Source: Polyangiaceae bacterium (GTDB taxonomy: Bacteria > Myxococcota_A > Polyangia > Polyangiales > Polyangiaceae). Taken from it: 64,000 nucleotides of DNA. This document shows positions 40,093-55,034 of this stretch, piece by piece. Each line of letters begins with the position of its first letter. Position 1 is the first letter of the stretch. A program made the position numbers and the translations under genes. The notes below the pieces were generated by a model. That model was not told where the DNA came from, did not search any database, and saw only the letters and a list, made by a program, of their open reading frames with translations. The stretch spans positions 320,001-384,000 of the forward strand of contig CBDCTZ010000016.1 of assembly GCA_965222375.1 (NCBI GenBank). The letters run 5' to 3'.

Positions 40093-40150
40093 GCGGAGGA
40101 GCAGGGATTCGACCCCTGGGTGCCCTTTCGGGCGCGCGGTTTTCGAAACC
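40093..40150 (-). pseudogene. tRNA-Ser(CGA) 3' fragment (anticodon arm to discriminator), att-like remnant
   Basis: GGT-TTCGAAA-ACC, long variable arm GCCC-GAAA-GGGC, T-arm CAGGG-GTCGAAT-CCCTG, CTCCTCC-G; 5' half absent. Confidence 0.75.
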
Positions 40151-40316
40151 CAAAATTCTACCACGCTGCAGGCGCAGGGTTGCGCCGACCGCAGCGAAGG
40201 CTGCTCGGCGCAAGAACCCTGCGCGAGACCGAAGGGAACCCCTGGAAGGGGCAGGGCGGGACGGCCGCTATCCACTCAGAAAGCCGGCGGTCGTCTGCTG
40301 CAACGTCCTGTTAGGC
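40147..40316 (-). other. attC fragment (R''/L'' plus central part, long class) lacking L'/R'
   Basis: Homologous to the other attC sites, truncated at the tRNA fragment. Confidence 0.85.
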
Positions 40317-40844
40317 CGCCTTCGTGTCGATCCAGTATCGTCGTTTTGGTGTTTCGAGGTCGGGAGCGACGACGACGTTTTCGAGAACGCCGCCGTTCTT
40401 TTCGATAGCTCGGATGGACCCGATATTGTCGTCATCACACGTCACCAGCACGCGTTCGATACCAAGGTGATCGCGGGCGATGTCCATGGACAACCGGAGA
40501 ATTGTGGTCGCGTAACCTTGCCGACGAAACTCCGGCACGACGACGAAGCCAATGTGGCCCCCTACGCGAAGCAGAATCTCATTCAGTGAATGTCGGATCG
40601 ACGTACGGCCGACGATTCTTGCTCCGGCGAAAGCGAAGAGGAACGTCGATGGAACGTGATTCTGCGATGGTAGTCCGACGCCTCGCGCCCGCTCCGCGAG
40701 AATTTGGAGGTACCTCCGGAAAGGCACGCCCGGTTCATGGTAGTGCAAGAACTCCGGGAAGGTGGGCGATGTCGCCTTGTGAGCTCTGATGAACTCGTCC
40801 TCCTCGTCTTCCGTGGGATGTCTGAGCGTCAGCTCGCGCCGCAT
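40311..40844 (-). CDS. Cassette 19: GNAT acetyltransferase
   Basis: VGR.SIRH.LN..L...GGHIGF.V.P..RR.GYA, VLVTCD..NIGS...IEKNGG; stop in attC R''. Confidence 0.9.
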   Translation of the reverse strand: MRRELTLRHPTEDEEDEFIRAHKATSPTFPEFLHYHEPGVPFRRYLQILAERARGVGLPSQNHVPSTFLFAFAGARIVGRTSIRHSLNEILLRVGGHIGFVVVPEFRRQGYATTILRLSMDIARDHLGIERVLVTCDDDNIGSIRAIEKNGGVLENVVVAPDLETPKRRYWIDTKAA

Positions 40845-40870
40845 TCTCACCTGAGCTTGGAGAGTTGTAG

Positions 40871-41078
40871 ACCTAGCAATTGAGGCGTTCAGGAACGCCG
40901 CGAACAGCCTCACCCAAGACTACCACGCTGCAGGCGCAGGGTTGCGCCGCACGTGTCGAAGGGTGCTCGGCGCAAGAACCCTGCGCGAGACCGAAGGGAA
41001 CCCCTGGAAGGGGCAGGGCGGAACGAACGCCATCCAGTCAGAAAGCCGGCGATCGTCTGCTGCAACGTCGTGTTAGAC
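40871..41078 (-). other. attC (long class, damaged: R' reads GCTAGGT, L' deletion)
   Basis: Homology to the attC family. Confidence 0.85.
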
Positions 41079-41088
41079 AGCTCTGTTG

Positions 41089-41463
41089 TCAGGGTGCGAG
41101 CTTGAATTCGACGTTTTCTCGAGTGACGTGGCACTCGTCGCTATCGTCAACAACGACGGTCTTCTTGGCGGTCTGGTATCCAGGCGCGGATACAGTAACC
41201 TCGTACGTTCCAAGTCGCTCACCGACGCCGAAGCAAGTGCAGTCGGTAGCGGCGGAGCACTGGAGAGCCTCCTGGAACTGCCCGTCCTGCGCGACGACGG
41301 ATGCGTTGCAAATCCGCTCTCCGGTTGCCTCGTCGCGAACGGTGACGTTGATGGAGTAGTGGAGACTAGCGTCGCAGGACTTACTGCTGCTGCAGTTTGG
41401 AAGGACGGCTAGCAGGGTCGGGCCGAGTAGTAACCACAAGAATCGACTGGAGGAAGCACGCAT
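41089..41463 (-). CDS. Cassette 18: small lipoprotein with a carboxypeptidase-regulatory-like domain
   Basis: Lipobox; VTVRD..TG..I.NA.V, G.YEVTVSAPGY. Confidence 0.75.
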   Translation of the reverse strand: MRASSSRFLWLLLGPTLLAVLPNCSSSKSCDASLHYSINVTVRDEATGERICNASVVAQDGQFQEALQCSAATDCTCFGVGERLGTYEVTVSAPGYQTAKKTVVVDDSDECHVTRENVEFKLAP

Positions 41464-41467
41464 GTCT

Positions 41468-41680
41468 GTCTAACGATTGAGGCGTTCAGCAGCGAACGCC
41501 AGCAACAGCATACACAAAAACCCACCACGCTGCAGGCGCAGGGTTGCGCCGAAGGCAGCGAAGGCTGCTCGGCGCAAGAACCCGGCGCGAGACCGAAGGG
41601 AACCCCTGGAAGGGGCAGGGCGGAACGGACGCCATCCAGTCAGCAAGCCTGCGGTCGTCTGCTGCAACGTCTTGTTAGGC
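41468..41680 (-). other. attC (213 bp)
   Basis: RYYTAAC...GTTAGRY cores, L boxes. Confidence 0.92.
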
Positions 41681-41706
41681 GGCATGCGCTGGGCTACGCT
41701 TAGTTC

Positions 41707-41931
41707 GTGGACCTACAGCTGACAGCGGTTTTCAAGAAGGTACCGCAAGGGTACATTGCGTTCGTGGAAGAACTTCCTGGTGCGAACACCCAGGGCGCCA
41801 CGCTTGACGAGGCGCGAGAAAACTTGCGGGAAGCCGTCGAATTGGTGCTTGTTGCCAACCGCGAGTTCGCGCGTGAGGACGCCGGTGACGACGAAGTAAT
41901 CCGCGAGCAACTCAGGATCGCTAGCGGGTGA
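41707..41931 (+). CDS. hicB: Cassette 17: HicB-family antitoxin (inverted relative to the array)
   Basis: GYIAFVEELPGANTQG.TLDEARENLREA. Confidence 0.88.
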   Translation: MDLQLTAVFKKVPQGYIAFVEELPGANTQGATLDEARENLREAVELVLVANREFAREDAGDDEVIREQLRIASG

Positions 41932-42113
41932 AGCGTCGCGATCTGATCCGGCATCTTGAGAAGAACGGTTGCCGGCTCCTGCGCGAGGGTGGAAGTCACT
42001 CGGTGTACGTCAATCCAGCGGCGAAGAAGGCATCAACTGTGCCTCGCCACTCCGAGGTCAACGACCATCTCGCGCGCAAGATCTGCAAGGATCTCGATGT
42101 GCCTCGCCCTTAG
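41928..42113 (+). CDS. hicA: Cassette 17: HicA-family toxin
   Basis: LIRHLE.NG....REGGSH..Y, TVPRH.E, I.KDL. Confidence 0.9.
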   Translation: MKRRDLIRHLEKNGCRLLREGGSHSVYVNPAAKKASTVPRHSEVNDHLARKICKDLDVPRP

Positions 42114-42158
42114 CGGAGTGCGCTCCAACGGCCAGCCTGCGCGATGAGTCTGTGGTCC

Positions 42159-42369
42159 GCCTAACAATTGAGGCGTTCAGCAGCGAACGCCAGAAACAAC
42201 ACCACCCAAGACTACCACGCTACAGGCGCAGGGTTGCGCCGAACGCAGCGAAGGCTGCTCGGCGCAAGACCCCTGCGCGAGACCGAAGGGAACCCCTGGA
42301 AGGGGCACGGCGGAGCGAACGCCAACCAGTCAGAAAGCCGGCGGTCGTCCGCTGCAACGTCCTGTAGGC
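42159..42369 (-). other. attC (long class, 1-nt deletion in R'')
   Basis: Ends CCTGTAGGC instead of CCTGTTAGGC. Confidence 0.88.
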
Positions 42370-42621
42370 GGGGTTCACCGTGACGTAGAACGCCGCTGGC
42401 GGGGGCAGCTCGGTGGCGGCGCTGGCGAAAGCATGCGCGGCAGCAATGGACTTAGTGTGAATGGAAACAACGTCGCCCTCGAACACGCAGCGATCCACGT
42501 ATGCCTTTGCGTCGACAAGAGAGAGCCCAAGGTGAGTGCAGAGCAGTCGGATTACTTCGACGGTCCCGACGCTAGCGGGACCACAGAAACGCGGGTCGAT
42601 CCGGAGTTGTACAGTGGGCAT
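42220..42621 (-). CDS. Cassette 16, ORF2: hypothetical (L7/L12 CTD-like motif); reads through into attC because the stop was lost
   Basis: V.VIR.L....GLSL.DAK.YVD; ancestral stop expected at ~42365. Confidence 0.5.
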   Translation of the reverse strand: MPTVQLRIDPRFCGPASVGTVEVIRLLCTHLGLSLVDAKAYVDRCVFEGDVVSIHTKSIAAAHAFASAATELPPPAAFYVTVNPAYRTLQRTTAGFLTGWRSLRRAPSRGSLRSRAGVLRRAAFAAFGATLRL

Positions 42622-43010
42622 CAGTGATCACTTCGCGTCGGCGGCTGTAGGCGTGCCCTGATGTATCCGCGAGCCTCGAGATTGAGTCCCCACTCGTCGG
42701 TCCCGCGCGAAATGCCCAAGAAGTAAAGGTTCCGATCAAGTTGTTCAAAGTGCACATCGCAGTCGGACGCGCGCAACGACACCAGCGTTGATTCGTCGTC
42801 GACCTCTACCGTCACCCATGCGGGTTGGTCATCCCAGGGATGGACCTGAATTCGGTTTTTCTGGGTCGTCCAGACGTCGATAACCGTGCTTGTTGAACCC
42901 CCGACCCGAAGGACGTAGCGCGCAGCACCAGTTCGGACGATCTCAATCAAGACGTCGTCGGCAGCAAAGTCATCGACGTCGCCGCTGGGCTGGACCTCGA
43001 GGCGCATCAC
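42621..43010 (-). CDS. Cassette 16, ORF1: hypothetical protein
   Basis: GGAGGAG RBS directly after the attC R'. Confidence 0.6.
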   Translation of the reverse strand: MMRLEVQPSGDVDDFAADDVLIEIVRTGAARYVLRVGGSTSTVIDVWTTQKNRIQVHPWDDQPAWVTVEVDDESTLVSLRASDCDVHFEQLDRNLYFLGISRGTDEWGLNLEARGYIRARLQPPTRSDH

Positions 43011-43016
43011 TCCTCC

Positions 43017-43203
43017 GCCTAACGATTGAGGCGTTCAGCAGCGAACGCCAGCAACAGCATAACCAAAAAACCACCACGCTGCAGGCGCAGGGTTGCACCG
43101 AACGCATCGAAGGATGCTCGGTGCAAGAACCCTGCGCGCAGGGCGGAACGGACGGTACCCGGTCAGAAAGGCCGCGATCGTCTGCTGCAACGTCCTGTTA
43201 GAC
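43017..43203 (-). other. attC (187 bp)
   Basis: Cores and L boxes. Confidence 0.92.
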
Positions 43204-43497
43204 CGCCCGGTCACGCCAGTAGCCTGGTCGGCGCTTGCAGTGTGCGATGGCCACAACCAGCACCACTTCTCCACGCACGCAGTACACGACTTCGTAGGGG
43301 AACCGCTGCAGAAGGAACCGTCGCGTTCCCTCAAGATGTGCTGGCCAGGCGCCGGGCGCTGCCACGATTTCGCGAAAGGCGCGACGAACCTCGAGTTCAA
43401 AGGCGGTCGCGGCTACGGGGTTGCGCTCGGCGTACCACTCTGCCGCCGCGCGAGCCTCGTCTGCAGCCTCGGCGAGTACATCAAGTACGACCGCCAC
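43198..43497 (-). CDS. Cassette 15: RelE/ParE-family toxin
   Basis: A.DE...AA.WY, F...V......I...P, RR..L.RFPY.VVY, VVAIAH..RRPGYW. Confidence 0.9.
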   Translation of the reverse strand: MAVVLDVLAEAADEARAAAEWYAERNPVAATAFELEVRRAFREIVAAPGAWPAHLEGTRRFLLQRFPYEVVYCVRGEVVLVVAIAHCKRRPGYWRDRAV

Positions 43498-43720
43498 TCG
43501 CGATTGCTTTCAGGTCGTCCAACAGTTGTTCACCGGAAACAACGCGCGCCTTTCCGGCGTCGTAGGCCTGAACACGCTTTTGGATTTCGACCGCCCACGC
43601 GACGTCGCGGTCGGCGTCCGGTGGGGATTCATCCAGACTGTGAATTAGCTCGCCCAGGAGTTTCGCGCGGGCCTCAACTGGCAGACGGAGCGCTTCCTGC
43701 AGCAGTTGGTCGATATCCAT
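43481..43720 (-). CDS. Cassette 15: addiction-module antitoxin
   Basis: ALRLP.E.RA.L...LI.SLD, AW..EI..R. Confidence 0.85.
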   Translation of the reverse strand: MDIDQLLQEALRLPVEARAKLLGELIHSLDESPPDADRDVAWAVEIQKRVQAYDAGKARVVSGEQLLDDLKAIASGGRT

Positions 43721-43769
43721 GAACCCAGTGTACCAGAGCAAGCGGCCACGGCCAGATACGGCGTTGTCG

Positions 43770-43955
43770 GTTTAACAATTGAGGCGTTCAGCAGCGAACG
43801 CCAGGAACATCATACCAAAAAACCAAAAGGCTTCAGGCGCAGGGTTGCGCCGAACGCAGCGAAGGCTGCTCGGTGCAAGACCCCTGCGCGCAGGGCGGAA
43901 CGGACGCTACCCAGTCAGAAAGCCGGCGATCGTCTGCTGCAACGTCCTGTTAGGC
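43770..43955 (-). other. attC (186 bp)
   Basis: Cores and L boxes. Confidence 0.92.
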
Positions 43956-43961
43956 CGCCCG

Positions 43962-44321
43962 CTAACCCATAGACCTCGCAGCCGGGCCGTGCGGCTCTGG
44001 CCAGACGAACTTCACGAAGTAGATGGCCGCAGCCACGAAGCTGCCAACGAAGAGGAAGATGGCCCAAAGCACGCGAGCGTTCTGATCGAGTGCGGCGTTC
44101 TTGAAGACGTGTGCGACGTAGAAGACGAGGAGCGCAAGGACCTCAAGCATAGTGAGGACATGGAGAGCGAGCAGTGTTGGTATCGCAGAGGCGACCGCGG
44201 GCGGGTCCTGGCCAATGGTTGTGATCGTGGTGAGAAACGCTGCAAAGAAGAGCAGCATGTAGAGTGGAGGCCAGCATGTAGCGACGCCGACAAAGATCTT
44301 GGTGCGCTTGCTCAGTTGCAC
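43962..44321 (-). CDS. Cassette 14: small 3-TM membrane protein
   Basis: Hydrophobic segments; fills the cassette. Confidence 0.7.
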   Translation of the reverse strand: MQLSKRTKIFVGVATCWPPLYMLLFFAAFLTTITTIGQDPPAVASAIPTLLALHVLTMLEVLALLVFYVAHVFKNAALDQNARVLWAIFLFVGSFVAAAIYFVKFVWPEPHGPAARSMG

Positions 44322-44346
44322 AGAAACCTACGGGCAAAGCCAGTCG

Positions 44347-44559
44347 GCCTAACGATTGAGGCGTTCAGCAGCGAACGCCAGCAACAGCATACCCAAAAAA
44401 CCAAAACGCTGCAGGCGCAGGGTTGCGCCGAACGCAGCGAATGCTGCTCGGCGCAAGAGCCCTGCGCGAGACCGAAGGGAACCCTTGGAAGGGGCAGGGC
44501 GGAACGAAGGCCATCCAGTCAGAAAGCCGGCGGTCGTCTGCTGCAACGTCCTGTTAGGA
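44347..44559 (-). other. attC (213 bp)
   Basis: Cores and L boxes. Confidence 0.92.
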
Positions 44560-44612
44560 GGCTGAGGGTGTCAGGTGCTGGAACAACGGACGCCAGGTGG
44601 TGTCATTAGATC

Positions 44613-45077
44613 GTGTGGGCAAGGGCGGCATTGACTCTCGTGCTGGCAATCGGATGTGAGCAACCGCCACCGGTAGAACTTGCGCGGGCGGGTGGGGCCG
44701 CTGGTGCCATCGAGAGAGCGCGCCAGAGTGTCATGGAGAATCACGCTTACGAGCGCCTCGCCTCGGCCAATGCACGGCTTGTGGTAGGCCACACCTGTTA
44801 CTACGGTGCGAAGCGCCCGCAAGGTTGGGCGGAGCTGAACGTGCTTGTGCGTGCACGTCGTGACGACCTGCTGTGGCGGTTGCAGCGAGCGCCAACGCCG
44901 GAAGCGCGCTTGTACGGCGCGATCGGCTTGCGGGAAACGGAAGCGGTTGGCCCGAAGTGGTTCAAAGTGCTGGTGGCGGCGGTCCGGGAGCCCGTGGCGA
45001 CGTGCAGAGGGTGCCTGCTTTCATCGGGTTCGGCGGTGGAAGCAGTTGCCGCGTACGATGACTGGGAGTCGGCCTAA
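44613..45077 (+). CDS. Cassette 13: putative lipoprotein, inverted relative to the array
   Basis: AIGC lipobox; TAA stop lies within the neighbouring attC core. Confidence 0.6.
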   Translation: MWARAALTLVLAIGCEQPPPVELARAGGAAGAIERARQSVMENHAYERLASANARLVVGHTCYYGAKRPQGWAELNVLVRARRDDLLWRLQRAPTPEARLYGAIGLRETEAVGPKWFKVLVAAVREPVATCRGCLLSSGSAVEAVAAYDDWESA

Positions 45078-45257
45078 CAATTGAGGCGTTCAGCAGCGAA
45101 CGCCAGAAACAACACCAACCAACAATATCACGCTACAGGCGCAGGGTTGCGCCGACCGCAGCGAAGGCTGCTCGGTGCAAGACCCCTGCGCGCAGGGCGG
45201 AACGGACGCCATCCAGTCAGAAGGCCGGCGTTCGACTGCTGCAACGTCCTGTTAGGC
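45072..45257 (-). other. attC (186 bp)
   Basis: Same as attC 53455-53640. Confidence 0.92.
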
Positions 45258-45259
45258 CG

Positions 45260-45700
45260 CTACGCTACTCCGACGCCTTCCGCGCCTGCACTTCCGGGTC
45301 CGGAAGGAGGCGGTATGTCGGCAACCAGCGCCTCGATGCGCGGCAAGCGAGGAGTGACAGCAGATCGGACCGTTTCAATGGATTGAGGTGCCGAAAAACG
45401 AAGGAGCAACACGTAGATCCCGCCAAAGGATCTGAGATAGGCATCGCCGGAGCGGCGTTTCGCGAAGCGATCAAGGCGGCCGCCGCGACGGAGCGGGGGA
45501 TCGAGACTGGCGAGTTCGTCCAAAACGATCTGCGCAGCGGGAGAGCGGCCGTCGTCCTTCACGTGTTCGCTGGAACACCAGAGCGTACCGCGACTGTCGA
45601 GCACGTAGGCGTAGATGGCGCGGGCATCGGCAGCCAAATTGGTCAGCACGCGCCGCAGCTCGGACGAGGCCGGCGTTTCAGGACCCATGCGCATTCCCAC
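45260..45700 (-). CDS. Cassette 12: gene B, copy 2 (roadblock/LC7-like hypothetical)
   Basis: Identical translation to 53643-54083. Confidence 0.7.
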   Translation of the reverse strand: MGMRMGPETPASSELRRVLTNLAADARAIYAYVLDSRGTLWCSSEHVKDDGRSPAAQIVLDELASLDPPLRRGGRLDRFAKRRSGDAYLRSFGGIYVLLLRFSAPQSIETVRSAVTPRLPRIEALVADIPPPSGPGSAGAEGVGVA

Positions 45701-45717
45701 CCACTGTCTCGACGTCG

Positions 45718-45904
45718 GCCTAACAATTGAGGCGTTCAGCAGCGAACGCCAGAAACAACATACCCAAACTCTACCACGCAGTCAGGCGCAGGGTTGCGCC
45801 GAACGCAGCGAAGGCTGCTCGGTGCAAGAACCCTGCGCGCAGGGCGGAACGGACGCTGACGAGTCAGAAAGCCGGCGGTCGTCTGCTGCAACGTCCTGTT
45901 AGGC
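45718..45904 (-). other. attC (187 bp) of cassette A
   Basis: Same as the attC sites at 50403, 52244 and 54101. Confidence 0.92.
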
Positions 45905-45908
45905 AACG

Positions 45909-46274
45909 CTACGAGGACTTGCGGGTCAACCGTGACGCCACCTCGACCAACCCGTTGGTGATGACTTCCGGAAGCGGCGCCGCCAACTTCGTTCGGAGGA
46001 GCGCAGCGATGTCCATTGTGAACAGCACTTCTCCGCCAGCGAAGAGTGAGACGGTTTCGTCCTCCTGGTGCAACCCATCTGGCCACCACTTCCGCTGCCA
46101 CTCGATCCTCAGGGGCTGGTCCTGGATCGAAGCGCAACGGAGGACGACACTGGCGGGGTTGTATGCCGTTTCTGATTCCTGAATTTGAACAACCTCGAGA
46201 CCAAGTTCCTCGAGTCTTGCGCGGAGGTTGGAGACCGCCGCGGTGTCAGACAGGAAAAGGAAGGGCTGAGCCAC
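45909..46274 (-). CDS. Cassette 11: gene A, copy 4 (hypothetical, 121 aa)
   Basis: Identical translation in four cassettes. Confidence 0.75.
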   Translation of the reverse strand: MAQPFLFLSDTAAVSNLRARLEELGLEVVQIQESETAYNPASVVLRCASIQDQPLRIEWQRKWWPDGLHQEDETVSLFAGGEVLFTMDIAALLRTKLAAPLPEVITNGLVEVASRLTRKSS

Positions 46275-46284
46275 CTGCGCGATT

Positions 46285-46471
46285 GCCTAACAATTGAGGC
46301 GTTCAGCAGCGAACGCCAGGAACAACATACCCAGACATTATCACGCAGTCGGGCGCAGGGTTGCGCCGACCGCAGCGAGGGCTGCTCGGCGCAAGAACCC
46401 TGCGCGCAGGGCGGAACGGACGCCATCCAGTCGAAAAGCCGGCGGTCGTCTGCTGCAACGTCCTGTTAGGA
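46285..46471 (-). other. attC (187 bp) of cassette D
   Basis: Same as attC 50970-51156. Confidence 0.92.
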
Positions 46472-46493
46472 GGCGTCGTTCTTTAGCAGTCGA

Positions 46494-46883
46494 CTATTCC
46501 GTACGGCCAAGAGGCACCGCTTGGGACCAGCGAGCGCCCTCCTGACATTCGAGCATGGCGCCCTGGTTGTGTGCAACGAGACGGAGGGGCCGCGAGGTGA
46601 CGCACCGAAGGAAGGCATTCAGATCGCTCGCCATTGCGGTCATGAGCTCGTGGCGGGGCGTGTCATCGTACCCGTCGTAATCGCACCAGTCGGTGACCTC
46701 CAGTCCGGAGGAGTGCTTCGCGTCGACGAACCACTCGAGAACGTTGATGGCAGCGTGGACTGTCACGGAAAGCTCGTCCCGTGTGAGGACAATCTCAACA
46801 TACTCCGCGTGCCGCTGGACAACCACGCCCGGCGTTCCGGCGAAGGCCTCCACCGCAGCGACGTGGGGACGGAGAGCTTTCAC
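46494..46883 (-). CDS. Cassette 10: gene D, copy 2 (hypothetical, 129 aa)
   Basis: Identical to 51179-51568. Confidence 0.7.
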   Translation of the reverse strand: MKALRPHVAAVEAFAGTPGVVVQRHAEYVEIVLTRDELSVTVHAAINVLEWFVDAKHSSGLEVTDWCDYDGYDDTPRHELMTAMASDLNAFLRCVTSRPLRLVAHNQGAMLECQEGARWSQAVPLGRTE

Positions 46884-46888
46884 CGTCC

Positions 46889-47075
46889 GCCTAACGATTG
46901 AGGCGTTCAGCAGCGAACGCCAGCCACAGCATACCCAAAAAACTACAACGCTGCAGGCGCAGGGTTGCGCCGAACGCAGCGAAGGCTGCTCGGCGCAAGA
47001 ACCCTGCGCGTGGGGCGGAACGGACGCCATCCAGTCAGAAAGCCGGCGGTCGTCTGCTGCAACGTCCTGTTAGGC
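46889..47075 (-). other. attC (187 bp)
   Basis: Cores and L boxes. Confidence 0.92.
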
Positions 47076-47524
47076 GGGCCCCGCCGTCTCTTGGACGTTG
47101 GCTTGCAGCCAGTGAACCAACGCCTCCAGGGTGAGCCGCCCCGAGGCGACGGACATTACGACGCTTTCCTGTTCGTCGTCCGTAGCGATGATTTCGAAAC
47201 CGTTCAGTACGAGGAAGACTTCCATCGCGGCGTGACCGATTCGCTTGTTTCCGTCGATAAAGGGATGACCTTGTATGAGCGCGAAACCAAGCGCGGCGGC
47301 TTTCTCAACAAGGGTTGGGTGCAGCTCGACACCATCGAACGTGGCGAGAGGTTGTGCGAGTGCGGATTGAACTCGCCCGAGGTCGCGCACACCGGCGGCA
47401 CCGCCGGAAGGTAACCGTTCAGGGGTAGGGCGCCTGGACACCGCGGTCTCGCGCAAGCGATCGAGATTGCTCCATTATTTCAATCGGCTTTCCATCTTCG
47501 CAAAAATGGGCGATTGGGACGCTG

Positions 47525-48979
47525 GTGAGCGATCCGCAGGCCGACCGTACCCGGCAGCTCGAGGCTGAAGTTGCAGCCAAAGATGCCCGCATCGCGGAGC
47601 AGGATGCGCGCATCGCGGAGCAGGATGCCCGCATCGCGGAGCTTGAGCAGCAGGTTGCTAGCTTGCTGGAGAAGCTGAATCAAAACTCGTCGAATTCGCA
47701 CAAGCCACCGTCCAGCGATCCCCCGGGCAATCGGAAGGAGCGTCGATCGCGGGCCAAGCAGAAGAAGCGCAAGCGAGGTGGGCAGAAGGGGCACCCGGGC
47801 AGCCACCGAAACTTGGTGCCGGAAGATCAGGTGGACAAGTTCGTCGACCACTTCCCACGCGAGTGCGAAAATTGCTGGAAACCGCTGCCGGAAGTCCGCG
47901 ACCCGCACGCCCATCGTCACCAGGTGACCGAGGTCCCACCCATCCGCCCGCACACGACCGAGTATCGTCGCCACGCGGTAGCCTGCGCAGGCTGCGCCCA
48001 TGTCACTTGCGCGCGCTACGACGAATCTCTGATCCCAACGTCCTCATTTGGACCTCGCCTGATGGCGTTAGTGGCTCTCTTTACGGGCGTGTATCATCTC
48101 AGCCGGCGCAAGGCGCAAGGGCTACTTGCCGATGTGCTGGGCGTCTCGGTTTCACTCGGCGCGATCAGTGCGGTCGAAGAGCGCGTCAGCGACGCGCTCG
48201 CGCCCGCGGTCAATGAAGCCTGGGACCATGCGGTCCAGGCCGATGTGAAACACACCGATGGAACAACCTGGTTTCAGGCAGGCACGACGATGTCCCTTTG
48301 GACCATCGCCACCGCGGCGGTGACGGTGTTCCGGATCCTCGCCGATGGCGCCAAAGACACACTCCGGCCGTTGTTCGGCGACCTGAATGGGATCTTGGTA
48401 AGTGATCGCGCCACAGCACTTACTTTCTGGGCGGCGGAGCGCCGGCAGATCTGTTGGGCGCATTTGCTACGTAAGTTTGTGTCGTTCTCGGAGCGCGATG
48501 GTCCCGCCGGCGCGCTTGGCCGAGACTTGCTCGGCTACACCGGCATCTTGTTCGATTATTGGCGCGACTACCGGGCGGGGAAAATGACCCGGGAGCGATT
48601 TCTGGCGTGGATGGCTCCGCTGCGGCAGCAGATGGAGGCTATGTTCGAGAAGGCTGTCCTCCTCGACATCAAGGACTTGTCGGGGTCGTGCGCCAACATT
48701 CTGAAATACAAGGAGGCGCTTTGGACCTTCATCGAGCGCGATGACGTGGAGCCGACAAACAACCATGCCGAAAGGGAACTGCGCGCTTTCGTGCTCTGGC
48801 GCAAGGGCTCGTTCGGAAGCCAGAGCAAGCGTGGCAACGTCTTCGCTGAGCGCGTGATGACCATCGCGCACACGGCGCGCAAGCAGAACAAGAACGTGCT
48901 GACTTTCCTCGCCGAGTCCTGCCAAGCTCGCATGGAGGGGACAAACTGGCCCTCCTTGTTCAAGACCGCAGCAGCTTGA
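47525..48979 (+). CDS. IS66 transposase (TnpC-like)
   Basis: Identical protein to 16574-18028. Confidence 0.95.
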   Translation: MSDPQADRTRQLEAEVAAKDARIAEQDARIAEQDARIAELEQQVASLLEKLNQNSSNSHKPPSSDPPGNRKERRSRAKQKKRKRGGQKGHPGSHRNLVPEDQVDKFVDHFPRECENCWKPLPEVRDPHAHRHQVTEVPPIRPHTTEYRRHAVACAGCAHVTCARYDESLIPTSSFGPRLMALVALFTGVYHLSRRKAQGLLADVLGVSVSLGAISAVEERVSDALAPAVNEAWDHAVQADVKHTDGTTWFQAGTTMSLWTIATAAVTVFRILADGAKDTLRPLFGDLNGILVSDRATALTFWAAERRQICWAHLLRKFVSFSERDGPAGALGRDLLGYTGILFDYWRDYRAGKMTRERFLAWMAPLRQQMEAMFEKAVLLDIKDLSGSCANILKYKEALWTFIERDDVEPTNNHAERELRAFVLWRKGSFGSQSKRGNVFAERVMTIAHTARKQNKNVLTFLAESCQARMEGTNWPSLFKTAAA

Positions 48980-48980
48980 G

Positions 48981-49394
48981 TCACTCAGTATCGGCCGCGG
49001 CGTCCACCGCCATCGGGAAGTACCGCGTCAGATGCTTGGAACCGACGCTCCGGATCTGCCCCGCACTCCTCAAACGCGTCATCGGTCGGTGCAGCTCGCG
49101 CACCGAAATGCCGACTTCCTCTGCCAGCGCCGCCATGCCCTTGCCGGGGCTCGCACAGATGGCCGCGTAGAGCCGCTGCCCAATCGCCGTAACTTCCTCG
49201 GGTGGACGGCGACGTCCCGTGCGACCTCTCGACCCTGTCGATGACTTCCGCGCCCTGGCAGCCCGCGTCTCCGCCACCGCGAAGCCTCGCTCGACCGCCT
49301 CCTGCGCGCTCCGCCGGCTTTCCGCGATGTGCTCCCGAACCAGCTGCTCGATCCGCTCCGACAATCCCTCGCTGTTACTCGTCGTCTTCGCCAT
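48981..49394 (-). CDS. Passenger winged-HTH-like protein within IS66
   Basis: Identical to 16159-16572. Confidence 0.65.
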   Translation of the reverse strand: MAKTTSNSEGLSERIEQLVREHIAESRRSAQEAVERGFAVAETRAARARKSSTGSRGRTGRRRPPEEVTAIGQRLYAAICASPGKGMAALAEEVGISVRELHRPMTRLRSAGQIRSVGSKHLTRYFPMAVDAAADTE

Positions 49395-49509
49395 GCGCCA
49401 CGAATCTCACGTCCCGAGCCGGGCCCTCAACCCAACCCCTGAACGGTTACGCCGGAAGAGGCTACCAGGGCAGCGTGAAGCCTGAGCACCTCGCCGAGTG
49501 TCAGGAACC

Positions 49510-49707
49510 TCATCGAGCAAGCCGACGATACAACTCCGCGTTTTTCGACAGGACGCGGTTCGCGGCATTCTCGAAGTCGTCCGCCGGTTGACCTAGGAGG
49601 TCAGCGATTAGGGCGGAGGCCAACTGCTCTGCGGAGATGCCCAGTGACTTCGCCCTCTCGCGAAGGGCTTCGATCTGGGTTTCCGTCAGTTCGACCGGCA
49701 TTTGCAT
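49510..49707 (-). CDS. Cassette 9: antitoxin partner of Doc (RHH-like)
   Basis: L...A..LGIS.E.L; F..A..RVL.KNAELYRRLA; ATGA overlap with doc. Confidence 0.8.
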   Translation of the reverse strand: MQMPVELTETQIEALRERAKSLGISAEQLASALIADLLGQPADDFENAANRVLSKNAELYRRLAR

Positions 49708-49791
49708 GCGAGAAGTGTAGCCGATTTTCTGACGACGGAAACCGGGGCCAACGAAGGCGCCACTCACCAACGCCGCAGCGCGAGATGCTCC

Positions 49792-50004
49792 GCCTAACAA
49801 TTGAGGCGTTCAGCAGCGAACGCCAGGAACAGCATACCCAAAAACCCACAACGCTGCAGGCGCAGGGTTGCGCCGAACGCAGCGAAGGCTGCTCGGCGCA
49901 AGAACCCTGCGCGAGACCGAAGGGAACCCCTGGAAGGGGCAGGGCGGAACGAACGCAGTCCAGTCAGAGCGCCTGCGGTCGTCTGTTGCAACGTCCTGTT
50001 AGGA
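49792..50004 (-). other. attC (213 bp)
   Basis: Cores and L boxes. Confidence 0.92.
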
Positions 50005-50397
50005 GGCTCCGTGGCGGATGGGGGCAAACTCGTTCGGACGCTCGTAAAAAACGCGTTCAAACCGTTCGGTGAGGAAGCTGTCGCTCGGGACCAGTTCGGC
50101 GTAGCGCTCGTTTGCGACGTGCTCAGTTTCGTCCGTCCACTGAGAGAGGACGGGATCCGTCGCCGCCCCGTTGAGGAAGGCGGCCACGTCCTGCAGACCG
50201 AAGTAGGAGAACCCGTCTGCAGCAGCAGCGAGTTCGACCGCTGTGAGGACATCGATGACATGGTGAACGCCGCCGTTCATCGCGATTCCGTGTGCTCGCA
50301 ACAGAGCCGCGAGGGCGGTGTCACCGGAGTGTGGTGTCAGACCGCCAGACTCCAAGGCTGCGCGGTTCCAAACCTGATCCGCGGTGGAAAGAGTCAT
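49999..50397 (-). CDS. Cassette 8: hypothetical (DMP19/DUF4375-like NGG motif)
   Basis: Acidic 132-aa ORF; MNGG..H; stop in attC R''. Confidence 0.65.
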   Translation of the reverse strand: MTLSTADQVWNRAALESGGLTPHSGDTALAALLRAHGIAMNGGVHHVIDVLTAVELAAAADGFSYFGLQDVAAFLNGAATDPVLSQWTDETEHVANERYAELVPSDSFLTERFERVFYERPNEFAPIRHGAS

Positions 50398-50402
50398 CGT
50401 CC

Positions 50403-50589
50403 GCCTAACAATTGAGGCGTTCAGCAGCGAACGCCAGAAACAACATACCCAAACTCTACCACGCAGTCAGGCGCAGGGTTGCGCCGAACGCAGCGAAGGC
50501 TGCTCGGTGCAAGAACCCTGCGCGCAGGGCGGAACGGACGCTGACGAGTCAGAAAGCCGGCGGTCGTCTGCTGCAACGTCCTGTTAGGC
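50403..50589 (-). other. attC (187 bp) of cassette A
   Basis: Cores and L boxes. Confidence 0.92.
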
Positions 50590-50593
50590 AACG

Positions 50594-50959
50594 CTACGAG
50601 GACTTGCGGGTCAACCGTGACGCCACCTCGACCAACCCGTTGGTGATGACTTCCGGAAGCGGCGCCGCCAACTTCGTTCGGAGGAGCGCAGCGATGTCCA
50701 TTGTGAACAGCACTTCTCCGCCAGCGAAGAGTGAGACGGTTTCGTCCTCCTGGTGCAACCCATCTGGCCACCACTTCCGCTGCCACTCGATCCTCAGGGG
50801 CTGGTCCTGGATCGAAGCGCAACGGAGGACGACACTGGCGGGGTTGTATGCCGTTTCTGATTCCTGAATTTGAACAACCTCGAGACCAAGTTCCTCGAGT
50901 CTTGCGCGGAGGTTGGAGACCGCCGCGGTGTCAGACAGGAAAAGGAAGGGCTGAGCCAC
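50594..50959 (-). CDS. Cassette 7: gene A, copy 3
   Basis: Identical translation. Confidence 0.75.
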   Translation of the reverse strand: MAQPFLFLSDTAAVSNLRARLEELGLEVVQIQESETAYNPASVVLRCASIQDQPLRIEWQRKWWPDGLHQEDETVSLFAGGEVLFTMDIAALLRTKLAAPLPEVITNGLVEVASRLTRKSS

Positions 50960-50969
50960 CTGCGCGATT

Positions 50970-51156
50970 GCCTAACAATTGAGGCGTTCAGCAGCGAACG
51001 CCAGGAACAACATACCCAGACATTATCACGCAGTCGGGCGCAGGGTTGCGCCGACCGCAGCGAGGGCTGCTCGGCGCAAGAACCCTGCGCGCAGGGCGGA
51101 ACGGACGCCATCCAGTCGAAAAGCCGGCGGTCGTCTGCTGCAACGTCCTGTTAGGA
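50970..51156 (-). other. attC (187 bp) of cassette D
   Basis: Cores and L boxes. Confidence 0.92.
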
Positions 51157-51178
51157 GGCGTCGTTCTTTAGCAGTCGA

Positions 51179-51568
51179 CTATTCCGTACGGCCAAGAGGC
51201 ACCGCTTGGGACCAGCGAGCGCCCTCCTGACATTCGAGCATGGCGCCCTGGTTGTGTGCAACGAGACGGAGGGGCCGCGAGGTGACGCACCGAAGGAAGG
51301 CATTCAGATCGCTCGCCATTGCGGTCATGAGCTCGTGGCGGGGCGTGTCATCGTACCCGTCGTAATCGCACCAGTCGGTGACCTCCAGTCCGGAGGAGTG
51401 CTTCGCGTCGACGAACCACTCGAGAACGTTGATGGCAGCGTGGACTGTCACGGAAAGCTCGTCCCGTGTGAGGACAATCTCAACATACTCCGCGTGCCGC
51501 TGGACAACCACGCCCGGCGTTCCGGCGAAGGCCTCCACCGCAGCGACGTGGGGACGGAGAGCTTTCAC
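51179..51568 (-). CDS. Cassette 6: gene D, copy 1
   Basis: GTG start just after the attC R'. Confidence 0.7.
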   Translation of the reverse strand: MKALRPHVAAVEAFAGTPGVVVQRHAEYVEIVLTRDELSVTVHAAINVLEWFVDAKHSSGLEVTDWCDYDGYDDTPRHELMTAMASDLNAFLRCVTSRPLRLVAHNQGAMLECQEGARWSQAVPLGRTE

Positions 51569-51573
51569 CGTCC

Positions 51574-51760
51574 GCCTAACAATTGAGGCGTTCAGCAGCG
51601 AACGCCAGAAACAGCATACCCAAAAAACCTCAACGCTGCAGGCGCAGGGTTGCGCCGAACGCAGCGAATGCTGCTCGGTGCAAGAACCCTGCGCGCAGGG
51701 CGGAACGGACGCCATCCAGTCAGAAAGCCGGCGGTCGTCTGCTGCAACGTCCTGTTAGGC
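51574..51760 (-). other. attC (187 bp)
   Basis: Cores and L boxes. Confidence 0.92.
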
Positions 51761-51795
51761 AGCTGGCGGCCCGCGCGTCGAAGCACGTGCCGTCG

Positions 51796-52239
51796 TCAGC
51801 GTGGCTTTGTCGCAACTCCGCGCAAGATGTCGATGCGATTCGGGGGAGCGTTCGGAGACATGAAGTCGGGAATGGTTTCCGCCGTTCGTCGAGGCCTGCT
51901 CAGGAACTCCACAGGCCACTCCGTCACGCGGCGCTGCTTGACGTGGACGTACCGGCCGTCTTCGTGCTCATCAATGAATTCTTGTTGGACGATGAGCGCC
52001 AAGGGCTCTTGAGCGCCGCTGGTCTGCCTCGAAAACTCGAACGCTTCGTCACAAGACGCGAAAGCGTAGAAGTAGTCGCTCCCGTTGTCCTCGTCGTCAG
52101 CTCCTTCAGACGGACAGCACCAGACGCGATACTCGAGAACGCCGTCCCAGACATACCCCCCACCAGCGTGTGCTTCTGCAGGATAGGTGCCGACGAGCGC
52201 GGGATCCACGACGGGCGGATATGTGTCGTCTGCTCTCAT
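51796..52239 (-). CDS. Cassette 5: hypothetical protein (GGGYVWD.VLEYRVW motif)
   Basis: 147-aa ORF filling the cassette. Confidence 0.75.
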   Translation of the reverse strand: MRADDTYPPVVDPALVGTYPAEAHAGGGYVWDGVLEYRVWCCPSEGADDEDNGSDYFYAFASCDEAFEFSRQTSGAQEPLALIVQQEFIDEHEDGRYVHVKQRRVTEWPVEFLSRPRRTAETIPDFMSPNAPPNRIDILRGVATKPR

Positions 52240-52243
52240 GCCT

Positions 52244-52430
52244 GCCTAACAATTGAGGCGTTCAGCAGCGAACGCCAGAAACAACATACCCAAACTCTAC
52301 CACGCAGTCAGGCGCAGGGTTGCGCCGAACGCAGCGAAGGCTGCTCGGTGCAAGAACCCTGCGCGCAGGGCGGAACGGACGCTGACGAGTCAGAAAGCCG
52401 GCGGTCGTCTGCTGCAACGTCCTGTTAGGC
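52244..52430 (-). other. attC (187 bp) of cassette A
   Basis: Cores and L boxes. Confidence 0.92.
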
Positions 52431-52434
52431 AACG

Positions 52435-52800
52435 CTACGAGGACTTGCGGGTCAACCGTGACGCCACCTCGACCAACCCGTTGGTGATGACTTCCGGAAG
52501 CGGCGCCGCCAACTTCGTTCGGAGGAGCGCAGCGATGTCCATTGTGAACAGCACTTCTCCGCCAGCGAAGAGTGAGACGGTTTCGTCCTCCTGGTGCAAC
52601 CCATCTGGCCACCACTTCCGCTGCCACTCGATCCTCAGGGGCTGGTCCTGGATCGAAGCGCAACGGAGGACGACACTGGCGGGGTTGTATGCCGTTTCTG
52701 ATTCCTGAATTTGAACAACCTCGAGACCAAGTTCCTCGAGTCTTGCGCGGAGGTTGGAGACCGCCGCGGTGTCAGACAGGAAAAGGAAGGGCTGAGCCAC
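52435..52800 (-). CDS. Cassette 4: gene A, copy 2
   Basis: Identical translation. Confidence 0.75.
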   Translation of the reverse strand: MAQPFLFLSDTAAVSNLRARLEELGLEVVQIQESETAYNPASVVLRCASIQDQPLRIEWQRKWWPDGLHQEDETVSLFAGGEVLFTMDIAALLRTKLAAPLPEVITNGLVEVASRLTRKSS

Positions 52801-52810
52801 CTGCGCGATT

Positions 52811-52996
52811 GCCTAACAATTGAGGCGTTCAGCAGCGAACGCCAGAAACAACATCAACCAACCCTACCACGCTGCAGGCGCAGGGTTGCGCCGAACGCAG
52901 CGAAGGCTGCTCGGCGCAAGAACCCTGCGCGCAGGGCGGAACGGACCTCACCCAGCCAGAAAGCCGGCGGTCGTCTGCTGCAACGTCCTGTTAGGA
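52811..52996 (-). other. attC (186 bp)
   Basis: Cores and L boxes. Confidence 0.92.
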
Positions 52997-53024
52997 GGCG
53001 CGGTTCAGTTGGCGGAATGTACGT

Positions 53025-53438
53025 CTACGAATTCGCCGCCCGCTCGAGTGCTTCGCTGATGTCGGTGGCCCAGGACTTCGCGTCACGAAACGGACGTAAG
53101 AAGACGTGATCGTGTCCTGCGAACGCGAGCTCCATGTGCATCGCGGGGGCCCGCATGGCGTTCGAACTGTGCACAACGACAGGGTACCGGTGAGGCTGGC
53201 CGGCGAGGAAGGAAGACACGTCCTGTCCAGACCCCGGGTTTTCGCCCCGCAACGCGGGTGCGTCCAAGTCGCAATCAAGCGAAAGAACGTGGGCGCGTCC
53301 AGGGTGCAAGCGCAACCATGACAGCATTTCGTGCGCAGACTCGAAGAGCAGGAGCTCGCAGTCCACCAGCAACTTGAGGGCACGTCGCATCTCGGCAATG
53401 CGCCACACGTCATCCTCAAGCACAGCGATCAGCGTCAT
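53025..53438 (-). CDS. Cassette 3: cyclic-phosphate-processing receiver-like domain protein
   Basis: LEDD..R, SLD.DL, G.G.DV..FL, VHSSN motifs. Confidence 0.75.
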   Translation of the reverse strand: MTLIAVLEDDVWRIAEMRRALKLLVDCELLLFESAHEMLSWLRLHPGRAHVLSLDCDLDAPALRGENPGSGQDVSSFLAGQPHRYPVVVHSSNAMRAPAMHMELAFAGHDHVFLRPFRDAKSWATDISEALERAANS

Positions 53439-53454
53439 GAAGAGGTGGTCGTCC

Positions 53455-53640
53455 GCCTAACAATTGAGGCGTTCAGCAGCGAACGCCAGAAACAACACCA
53501 ACCAACAATATCACGCTACAGGCGCAGGGTTGCGCCGACCGCAGCGAAGGCTGCTCGGTGCAAGACCCCTGCGCGCAGGGCGGAACGGACGCCATCCAGT
53601 CAGAAGGCCGGCGTTCGACTGCTGCAACGTCCTGTTAGGC
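53455..53640 (-). other. attC (186 bp) of cassette B
   Basis: Cores and L boxes. Confidence 0.92.
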
Positions 53641-53642
53641 CG

Positions 53643-54083
53643 CTACGCTACTCCGACGCCTTCCGCGCCTGCACTTCCGGGTCCGGAAGGAGGCGGTATG
53701 TCGGCAACCAGCGCCTCGATGCGCGGCAAGCGAGGAGTGACAGCAGATCGGACCGTTTCAATGGATTGAGGTGCCGAAAAACGAAGGAGCAACACGTAGA
53801 TCCCGCCAAAGGATCTGAGATAGGCATCGCCGGAGCGGCGTTTCGCGAAGCGATCAAGGCGGCCGCCGCGACGGAGCGGGGGATCGAGACTGGCGAGTTC
53901 GTCCAAAACGATCTGCGCAGCGGGAGAGCGGCCGTCGTCCTTCACGTGTTCGCTGGAACACCAGAGCGTACCGCGACTGTCGAGCACGTAGGCGTAGATG
54001 GCGCGGGCATCGGCAGCCAAATTGGTCAGCACGCGCCGCAGCTCGGACGAGGCCGGCGTTTCAGGACCCATGCGCATTCCCAC
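53643..54083 (-). CDS. Cassette 2: gene B, copy 1 (roadblock/LC7-like hypothetical)
   Basis: L..VL..L.....A..AYVLD..G.L; YVLLL.F pattern. Confidence 0.7.
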   Translation of the reverse strand: MGMRMGPETPASSELRRVLTNLAADARAIYAYVLDSRGTLWCSSEHVKDDGRSPAAQIVLDELASLDPPLRRGGRLDRFAKRRSGDAYLRSFGGIYVLLLRFSAPQSIETVRSAVTPRLPRIEALVADIPPPSGPGSAGAEGVGVA

Positions 54084-54100
54084 CCACTGTCTCGACGTCG

Positions 54101-54287
54101 GCCTAACAATTGAGGCGTTCAGCAGCGAACGCCAGAAACAACATACCCAAACTCTACCACGCAGTCAGGCGCAGGGTTGCGCCGAACGCAGCGAAGGCTG
54201 CTCGGTGCAAGAACCCTGCGCGCAGGGCGGAACGGACGCTGACGAGTCAGAAAGCCGGCGGTCGTCTGCTGCAACGTCCTGTTAGGC
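54101..54287 (-). other. attC (187 bp) of cassette A
   Basis: Cores and L boxes. Confidence 0.92.
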
Positions 54288-54291
54288 AACG

Positions 54292-54657
54292 CTACGAGGA
54301 CTTGCGGGTCAACCGTGACGCCACCTCGACCAACCCGTTGGTGATGACTTCCGGAAGCGGCGCCGCCAACTTCGTTCGGAGGAGCGCAGCGATGTCCATT
54401 GTGAACAGCACTTCTCCGCCAGCGAAGAGTGAGACGGTTTCGTCCTCCTGGTGCAACCCATCTGGCCACCACTTCCGCTGCCACTCGATCCTCAGGGGCT
54501 GGTCCTGGATCGAAGCGCAACGGAGGACGACACTGGCGGGGTTGTATGCCGTTTCTGATTCCTGAATTTGAACAACCTCGAGACCAAGTTCCTCGAGTCT
54601 TGCGCGGAGGTTGGAGACCGCCGCGGTGTCAGACAGGAAAAGGAAGGGCTGAGCCAC
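54292..54657 (-). CDS. Cassette 1: gene A, copy 1 (attI-proximal)
   Basis: Identical translation. Confidence 0.75.
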   Translation of the reverse strand: MAQPFLFLSDTAAVSNLRARLEELGLEVVQIQESETAYNPASVVLRCASIQDQPLRIEWQRKWWPDGLHQEDETVSLFAGGEVLFTMDIAALLRTKLAAPLPEVITNGLVEVASRLTRKSS

Positions 54658-54667
54658 CTGCGCGATT

Positions 54668-54685
54668 GCCTAACAGTAATTAGAC
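54668..54685 (-). other. attI: attI simple site
   Basis: Minus strand GTCTAAT-TACT-GTTAGGC; identity with the other cassette-A junctions stops 1 nt beyond the core. Confidence 0.85.
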
Positions 54686-55034
54686 CGCGATGGCGGTCTA
54701 AGGTGGCTGTCAGTCTAACAGAGCGGTGGGGCCCCGATAAATCGGGAAAGGGGGTGCGTGGTGCACGTTAGGTGGGTCCACCTAACGTGCGAAGACGAGG
54801 TCCATCTAACAGAGGGGACTGGGCGGACCGTTTGGCCTCCGAGCCGGCGTTCAGCCGTGCGGGCGAGTTGGATGGCCGGCGCGGCGTTGGTTGGGGGTGG
54901 GCAGTGCTCGCAAGGGAGTGGCGTTCGCCATGGCGTCGATCTGGTGTCGCCACTGCGCGGAGCGGAGTGGCGACCGGCTTTCTGAGGAGAAGGGGGCGCC
55001 CGGGGGGCGGCATGGATGTTGATGAGGCTGGGGC

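Follow-up and report, generated by a model that had tools for sequence, protein, structure and literature searches.

Analysis of a 64,000-nucleotide stretch of DNA from a Polyangiaceae bacterium (GenBank assembly GCA_965222375.1, contig CBDCTZ010000016.1; G000:C16:320001-384000 in our numbering, hereafter the window) reveals a gene for an integron integrase, an adjoining attI-like region and an array of gene cassettes that end in unusually long attC recombination sites. It is very probable that these form a complete, chromosomally fixed (sedentary-type) integron, whose attC sites of 186-213 nt fold like a scaled-up version of the Vibrio cholerae repeats (VCR). The integron is a known element in a lineage-specific form, with VCR-like attC sites of double length, a C as extrahelical base and signs of recent shuffling, and no new mechanism is required to account for it. 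The source genome is a 10.56 Mb draft of 64% G+C in 16 contigs, and the integron sits on a 3.48-Mb contig, not on a transposon or plasmid. An original prediction, made from the letters of the stretch, had proposed a sedentary chromosomal integron. Its identity as an integron is upheld by the full-length integrase (IntI), the attI junction and the attC array, and its sedentary character by the chromosomal location, the large array, the similarity of the attC sites and the presence of the same attC family in related species.

Integrase, attI and the cassette array

The features that define the integron are listed below.

55035..56009, plus strand: intI, integron integrase of 324 aa (TIGR02249, 423.2 bits against a cut-off of 265)
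54668..54815, minus strand: attI region, predicted from sequence, with the crossover between G 54674 and TT 54673
36636..54673, minus strand: entire cassette array, made up of 18 complete cassettes followed by a degenerate distal end (from motif, cassette cutting and profile search)

The product of intI matches the TIGR02249 profile over positions 1-315 of 315 and aligns end to end with VchIntIA (PDB 2A3V; 288.7 bits, residues 7 to 321), a full-length likeness to the integrase of the VCR system. The integron-specific insertion (additional domain) aligns ungapped with 2A3V, and the catalytic R-K-H-R-H-Y motifs (R, K, H-x-x-R, H and Y) are all present. The protein is an IntI-type tyrosine recombinase with the integron-specific additional domain, and its closest IntI relative among named records comes from a Polyangiaceae metagenome-assembled genome (62% identity).

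The junction between attI and the first cassette reads ATTACTG|TTAGGCAATCGCG (...ATTACTG|TTAGGC...) at 54674/54673, and this crossover is located 361 bp upstream of the start of the divergent intI. Several GTTAG-type boxes and two inverted repeats, one of them at 54701-54680, are present upstream of the crossover. From the junction onward the first cassette is identical to its three internal copies. By its sequence the region 54668..54815 resembles an attI, as it adjoins intI and has the first cassette joined to it. A search for a Pc promoter gave one promoter-like match against 1.5 expected from shuffled sequence, and none in attI. A perfect 20-nt palindrome (GTTAGGTGGACCCACCTAAC, 54766-54788) with two inverted core-like boxes is situated between attI and intI, about 100 nt upstream of the attI crossover, and is a candidate binding site for the integrase or a regulator.

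Eighteen full-length attC sites are arranged in a single orientation from 54287 to 40871, a result on which repeat search, motif extraction and a profile search of the whole window agree, and which bears out the number, homogeneity and size range (186-213 bp) that had been claimed. Four of them are 186 nt long, nine 187 nt and three 213 nt, with one each of 208 and 212 nt. The extent given for the array in the original prediction (40871..54287) was too short, as three truncated attC sites extend it leftward to 36636; the window holds no further sites. In the list of sites, pfold is the predicted probability of the recombinogenic R+L pairing in the ensemble, computed for the 13 distinct sites of the window.

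54101..54287, minus strand: attC 1, 187 nt, cassette B (201 bits; pfold 0.86)
53455..53640, minus strand: attC 2, 186 nt, cassette A (pfold 0.87)
52811..52996, minus strand: attC 3, 186 nt (pfold 0.87)
52244..52430, minus strand: attC 4, 187 nt, cassette B copy, identical to attC 1
51574..51760, minus strand: attC 5, 187 nt (pfold 0.86)
50970..51156, minus strand: attC 6, 187 nt, cassette C (pfold 0.87)
50403..50589, minus strand: attC 7, 187 nt, cassette B copy, identical to attC 1
49792..50004, minus strand: attC 8, 213 nt, long class (pfold 0.06)
46889..47075, minus strand: attC 9, 187 nt, ends the cassette bearing the insertion sequence (pfold 0.86)
46285..46471, minus strand: attC 10, 187 nt, cassette C copy, identical to attC 6
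45718..45904, minus strand: attC 11, 187 nt, cassette B copy, identical to attC 1
45072..45257, minus strand: attC 12, 186 nt, cassette A copy, identical to attC 2
44347..44559, minus strand: attC 13, 213 nt, long class (pfold 0.85)
43770..43955, minus strand: attC 14, 186 nt, R' = GTTAAAC (pfold 0.03)
43017..43203, minus strand: attC 15, 187 nt (pfold 0.02)
42159..42370, minus strand: attC 16, 212 nt, long class, degenerate R'' (pfold 1e-8)
41468..41680, minus strand: attC 17, 213 nt, long class (pfold 0.07)
40871..41078, minus strand: attC 18, 208 nt, long class with a 4-nt deletion, R' = GCTAGGT (pfold 2e-5)
40149..40316, minus strand: truncated attC with R'', L'', insert and central hairpin kept, without L' and R' (model positions 45-185)
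39161..39242, minus strand: truncated attC, L'-R' half only (model positions 1-84)
36636..36733, minus strand: truncated attC, R''-L'' part with the long-class insert only, the most distal trace of the array (model positions 115-185)
47410..49450, plus strand: IS66-family insertion sequence inside cassette 9 (transposase 47525-48979, Pfam DDE_Tnp_IS66 2.9e-28)

Each attC is preceded by one small minus-strand open reading frame (ORF) of 99-179 aa, and the units, each ending in an attC, read in one orientation away from intI. The cassettes are 567-858 bp long except for cassette 9, which measures 2903 bp because of the insertion sequence inside it. The attC DNA amounts to 3486 of the 13797 nt between 54673 and 40877. 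The cassette contents are mostly without a Pfam family but include a ParE toxin, GNAT acetyltransferases and a receiver-like domain, and are typical of chromosomal cassettes. Toxin-antitoxin genes are frequent in large chromosomal integrons; those present here are a ParE-family toxin ORF in cassette 15 (43198-43497) and two adjacent 'Unstab_antitox' ORFs at the distal end (36917-37434).

The repeats of 186-187 nt are 89-100% alike, and the 18 full and three partial sites have a mean column identity of 85%. Homogeneity of attC sites is usually taken to mean that an integron produces its own cassettes, as the original prediction also supposed here. In the 10.56 Mb genome, a 20-nt L'-R' pattern gives 20 matches on one strand, none on the other and none for the reversed control; 19 of the 20 are located in the array and one on contig C15. 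The attC repeats are not due to chance.

Predicted fold of the attC sites and its covariation

On the top strand, which is the minus strand of the window, the attC reads R'' GCCTAAC, AGGAC and L'' GTTGCAGC at one end and L' GCTGAAC, GCCTCAATT and R' GTTAGGC at the other. The elements of the shared motif proposed earlier are well kept when taken singly (among the 18 sites, R'' NYYTAAC in 17, AGGAC in 16, L'' GTTGCAGC in 17, L' GCTGAAC in 17, GCCTCAATY in 18 and R' GTTRRRY in 17), but all six occur jointly in only 14. The site ends carry the complementary cores RYYYAAC (R'') and GTTRRRY (R'), each in 17 of the 18.

The bottom strand of the attC is the plus strand of the window. Its folds were computed with DNA parameters and z-scores were obtained against 200 shuffles. 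The R/L fold, for which bottom-strand folding had been named as a check, turns out to be the minimum-energy structure in both length classes (z = -4.1 and -4.7), with 0 of 200 shuffles as good. The predicted fold consists of an 8-bp R stem with the crossover in it (G|TT of the top strand), a 5-nt bulge on one side that replaces the unpaired central spacer, and a 19-bp L/extended stem with one 1x1 mismatch, the paired arms being 33 and 31 nt long. Single unpaired bases T, C and T are present on the R''-L'' (3') arm at top-strand positions 11, 16 and 23; the C and T extrahelical bases predicted earlier are thus recovered, as three bases in all. The 5/9-nt spacer of that prediction holds by box counting, whereas in the fold 3-4 of its bases pair and leave the one-sided bulge. 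The terminal structure, 123 nt in length and 149 nt in the long class, is predicted to form a three-way junction (multiloop) in which two linkers, each of about 35 nt and the first of them A/C-rich, enclose a hairpin of 22 pairs with a GAAG loop. The central hairpin is therefore present as claimed, with 53 nt in place of about 57, and the non-pairing linkers and branched fold agree with the claim. What distinguishes the long class is a 26-nt insert, placed centrally in a short palindrome of the second linker. With a purine fraction of 0.55-0.59 the bottom strand is purine-rich, in line with attC bottom strands in Loot 2017.

RNAalifold on the window sites alone favoured local hairpins within each arm, and for this reason both long-range and local pairing were tested on diverged relatives. 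A profile search of the relatives' loci gave 49 rows, of which 23 (running from model position <=20 to >=175) were kept; the rows excluded were partial sites, one duplicate locus and the copy on C15, which was entered on its own. The covariation alignment consisted of 37 sequences, comprising 13 window sites, one orphan and the 23 relatives, which come from three sister species and one other genus and are 167-219 nt long. In this alignment 94% of cells are paired in the long-range L stem and 80% in the R stem. Both partners have changed in 9 of the 19 L-stem pairs and in 13 of the 22 pairs of the central hairpin. When the partners are shifted by 1-3 columns, pairing falls from 90% to 31-38%. 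For the whole structure 0 of 500 shuffles reach any of five measures, although kinship among the sequences inflates this test and the structure was derived from one member.

The local 5'-arm hairpin was rejected, as it shows a double change in 1 of 7 pairs and is broken in two sites of genome G005; the same two sites retain the long-range pairing via G-C to A-T changes. Because covariation favours the long-range pairs over local hairpins, the alignment supports the canonical attC-type long-range fold as the predicted pairing. The L boxes pair as GTT-G-CAGC against GCTGAAC, with the extra flipped-out base in 36 of the 37 sequences. The first extrahelical base is C in 34, A in two, absent in one and never G. 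Covariation means that the structure of the central hairpin matters, not what it is for; its plain reading would be the lineage's own terminal structure.

The predicted probability of recombinogenic pairing is unevenly distributed along the array. A pfold of about 0.86 is obtained in 7 of the 13 distinct sites, including all attI-proximal and all duplicated ones, while four sites have 0.02-0.07 and two of the most distal less than 1e-4; most sites distal to 44300 are at or far below 0.07. This modelled gradient agrees with an array in use at its front and in decay at its back. Sites of the long (213-nt) class cluster in the array's distal half.

Cassette copies, recombination and alternative readings

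When the cassettes are delimited by cutting at G|TT, cassette B (567 bp) is found four times and cassettes A (646 bp) and C (604 bp) twice each, all copies being 100% identical. Counted from attI, the cassettes follow each other as B A 3 B 5 C B 8 9 C B A 13-18. The upstream neighbours of the B copies vary (attI, the attC of cassette 3, the attC of C) and the downstream attC is constant, so the mobile unit is the ORF with its downstream attC, with the crossover in R'. According to the part of Bouvier 2009 covered, a crossover in R' is the signature of bottom-strand recombination, and top-strand recombination shifts the point to R''. Indirectly, the crossover in R' would therefore mark the plus strand of the window as the recombined strand. 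One B-A pair directly abuts attI, and attI and attC have only an 8-nt core in common. As judged from the sequence, identical cassettes that move with their downstream attC point to recent site-specific shuffling and, indirectly, to recent activity of IntI on these long sites. Successive insertions of excised copies at attI (C-B, then 5, B and 3, then B-A) would explain the order simply; unequal homologous exchange does not explain it.

In a complete sedentary integron of this kind, the cassettes on the minus strand, directed away from the divergent intI and each ended by an attC, would be excised by attC x attC recombination and then reinserted at attI. Binding of IntI would follow the solved VchIntIA-VCR complex, with contacts to the R and L boxes and to the extrahelical bases. 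We infer that IntI is active now and that the sites fold from the single-stranded DNA that the lagging-strand template provides. Cumulative GC skew increases along 3.3 Mb of the contig, with the window within the rising part and the skew near the window small. A rising skew would make the plus strand the leading strand, and the attC bottom strands may thus tentatively be placed on the lagging-strand template, where they would be exposed in single-stranded form at each passage of the fork. This orientation is given for 5 of 30 sedentary integrons, with arrays of at most 22 cassettes, in the part of Loot 2017 covered; the present array has 18 full and three partial sites.

Several observations weigh against this reading. 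The first extrahelical base on the bottom strand is not the expected G, and 6 of the 13 distinct sites (attC 8 and 14-18) have a predicted recombinogenic probability of 0.07 or less. Wobble pairs (in the arms 41 are G-T and 37 A-C, in the hairpin 36 and 23) have no clear strand bias, and covariation is therefore silent on which strand's fold is selected. The identical copies could partly stem from homologous recombination between the 187-nt repeats, and the direction of replication rests on the GC skew of a draft contig, with dnaA located on another contig. Excised circles and alternative junctions find no read-level evidence in the public runs, whose contigs break at attC. Four runs of one study hold the stretch as such contigs, with low cover in some bins, and the 8 listed joints at attC edges (sides of 21-34 nt, depth 2-5) are indistinguishable from mis-placement among repeats. 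There is no RNA run among the public runs listed for the stretch.

If the array were a fossil, with the integron inactive and the copies produced by RecA-dependent unequal exchange or replication slippage between attC repeats, the length and likeness of the 186-187 nt repeats would be ample for homologous recombination, and integrase-independent deletion between similar VCRs is described in the part of Loot 2017 covered. The decaying distal sites, three of them truncated, would also fit, as would a sister species (G002) that retains a long attC array without IntI. We nevertheless regard such a fossil as unlikely, since intI is intact with all catalytic motifs and the copies are dispersed, not tandem. 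Homologous exchange cannot have placed the pair at attI, where only the 8-nt core is common with attC, and the complete identity of all copies argues for recent events. Another explanation, which we consider improbable, is that the central hairpin and its linkers are a separate element (a 3' untranslated region RNA, a terminator or a platform for a host protein) that entered an ancestral attC and was kept for its own function. The covariation of 13 of 22 hairpin pairs goes beyond the needs of a 'variable' terminal structure, each of the four sister genomes and each length class retains the hairpin, and a T-run is located 13 nt downstream of some copies on the mRNA strand. However, in the 10.56-Mb genome the hairpin and the 26-nt insert occur only within attC (20 array copies and one orphan) and are therefore not a dispersed repeat. 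Terminator-like matches number 13 against 14.9 expected, promoter-like ones, as stated above, one against 1.5, and the wobble pairs favour neither strand. The hairpin has no match to an Rfam family: a scan of 36000-57000 at E<=1 gives only a sub-threshold hammerhead at 38138 and none at the attC sites. VCR terminal structures, moreover, are likewise conserved within species without a known separate role.

The length and internal hairpin of the repeats are unlike those of a textbook attC, which might suggest an intergenic family of the repetitive extragenic palindrome (REP) or miniature inverted-repeat transposable element (MITE) kind that adjoins the integrase gene by chance. This is hardly credible, as the repeats are confined to one array beside intI and one orphan, carry the RYYYAAC and GTTRRRY cores in nearly all sites and L boxes with the bulged base on the correct arm, are accompanied by one ORF per unit, and have the first unit joined to attI at the core. 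A bolder extension of the sedentary-integron reading is a private IntI/attC pair, in which the integrase reads C in place of G and tolerates or needs the one-sided bulge, the three-way junction being a functional add-on. We put this forward as doubtful. By starting the folding, or by attracting a single-strand-binding or architectural protein of the host, the three-way junction might let a site of double length fold. If such a pair exists, recombination of the sites would be efficient with the native IntI and poor with IntI1 or VchIntIA, providing a natural orthogonal recombination system.

Comparison with known systems and occurrence in relatives

The published values compared here are those found in the covered parts of the papers cited. 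The length of attC sites is cited as 57-141 bp, with terminal structures from 3 nt to the 'complex branched' one of VCR, and the sites of sedentary chromosomal integrons are mostly 120-129 bp (Loot 2017, PMC5371416); a range of 20-100 nt is given for the terminal structure in Cury 2016. Eleven taxon-specific attC models have consensus lengths of 60-127 nt (Deltaproteobacteria 87, Vibrionales 127; Ghaly 2021 supplement 4). The present sites, with 186-213 nt and terminal structures of 123-149 nt, lie outside the first two ranges, as had been predicted for their length, and above the models as well. The chromosomal families of the Ghaly 2021 models resemble the present one in being homogeneous within a lineage, but are 60-127 nt long against 167-219 nt for the present family across the genus. 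In Treponema succinifaciens and T. brennaborense, too, a chromosomal integron carries long attC sites that are highly similar and particular to the lineage, at 115-132 bp (PMC3607928) in contrast to 186-213 bp here.

The closest parallel in architecture is VCR2/1, with a 31-nt and a 34-nt arm, a spacer of 5+5, extrahelical G16, T20 and T24, and a 65-nt branched terminal structure (Bouvier 2009). The present sites resemble VCR in their homogeneity within the array and in a stem whose arms measure about 31-34 nt and hold R and L boxes. Three bases are likewise flipped out on the R''-L'' arm, close to the canonical positions, and the unpaired spacer and branched terminal structure are common to both; a branched terminal structure is thus already known from VCR. 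They differ in size, VCR having 120-129 nt and a 65-nt terminal structure; the sites here exceed VCR in length by a factor of 1.5 and the published deltaproteobacterial consensus by a factor of more than two. VCR has a G as first flipped-out base where the present sites have a C, and its spacer is 5+5 nt (3 unpaired, 2 paired) compared with 9+5 nt and a one-sided 5-nt bulge here. The VCR bottom strands lie on the leading-strand template, whereas those of the window, by GC skew, would lie on the lagging-strand template. Length, the C as first extrahelical base and the 9+5 spacer with its one-sided bulge are the departures from published attC sites. For the first extrahelical base, hundreds of attC sites have 'almost exclusively a G', and the position of this base specifies strand choice; changing G16 of VCR to C lowers recombination only 2.7-fold (Bouvier 2009), and a C is therefore not disqualifying. 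The original prediction had left the C in place of the near-universal G unflagged, although it is itself unusual.

In the search listings, abstracts and paper passages covered, no description of attC sites above 141 bp or of the present family was found. One study that ran IntegronFinder with a maximum attC size of 300 bp on its own myxobacterial genomes reports no cassettes in the part covered, and the methods of one paper give attC size limits of 40 and 200 bp (PMC7067208). Integron censuses rest on a covariance model together with a size window, and a 200-bp limit would drop 5 of the 18 sites here, namely those of 208-213 nt, as had been suspected for the long class. The default maximum attC size of IntegronFinder is 200 bp. 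Dropped sites would merge cassettes and could split the array, and large-genome soil bacteria may be under-counted. The sites do not overturn the integron model. A natural family with C at the strand-selecting base, a one-sided bulge and a terminal structure twice that of VCR provides a test of the rules drawn from VCR and attCaadA7, and the pattern of identical cassettes with a pair at attI is a readable history of recent insertion in an integron that is neither from Vibrio nor clinical.

A DNA search across 60 related genomes finds the attC family in four of the five other species of the genus and, weakly, in two of 31 other genera of the family. A metagenome scan with a 22-nt arm motif gave one Joint Genome Institute (JGI) metagenome contig. 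In the sister species G002 at least 15 sites of the same family extend over about 31 kb (G002:C5:629000-660200; L033, L034), and IntI is found nowhere in its genome (99% complete). By its sequence the G002 array appears as an integrase-less attC cluster, like the clusters of attC sites lacking integron-integrases (CALIN) in the definition of IntegronFinder; the array of the window has an intact IntI and an attI and is hence a complete integron. The IntI of G003 is 73% identical to that of the window; synteny of the G003 flanks was not found at the DNA level, and downstream of intI only intI aligns (72%). Both length classes are present in G002 and G003, and the 26-nt insert therefore predates these species.

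In G005 (G005:C15:324490-325690; L031:1113-2325) an attC of the family is located directly upstream of a 325-aa tyrosine recombinase that is 38-43% identical to IntI. The IntI profile matches this protein in two pieces (4-180 and 235-315), and it therefore seems to be without the integron-specific insertion. A solitary full-length attC (187 nt, 91% to attC 1) is present elsewhere in the source genome, at G000:C15:716809-716994 (L038:2809-2995), about 190 nt downstream of a 402-aa gene of Fic and CAP12/Pycsar-TIR type. The DNA upstream of this orphan shares with attI only the 9-mer ATTACTGTT and no extended likeness, and the orphan may be a cassette inserted at a secondary site.

In the locus DNA covered for five other IntI-bearing genera of the same family (G010, G014, G019, G025 and G033), no homogeneous repeat family adjoins intI. 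An attC finder based on core complementarity and arm folding recovered 13 of the 18 window sites in its strict form, and in its relaxed form gave 11 matches in 36 kb of control DNA; the 'long' matches that it reported in 60 IntI loci from other phyla are not trusted because of these control matches. A repeat search of six of those 60 loci found no homogeneous array.

Between the 3'-truncated and the 5'-truncated attC near the distal end of the array are about 900 bp (39243-40148). The two halves overlap in sequence and are therefore not the product of a simple insertion into one site, which indicates that the distal end has been rearranged. The IS66-family element in cassette 9 encodes a single DDE_Tnp_IS66 transposase of 484 aa. 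A contig of 2041 nt with exactly the ends of this element is present in the public runs at about twice the depth of its flanks, and the element is therefore probably multi-copy. At the other side of the integron, three tandem 44-nt units (55983-56114), each with a GC-rich hairpin (AGCCCG...CGGGCT), start within the last codons of intI and extend into the spacer before a Uma2-family gene (56184-56765, minus strand).

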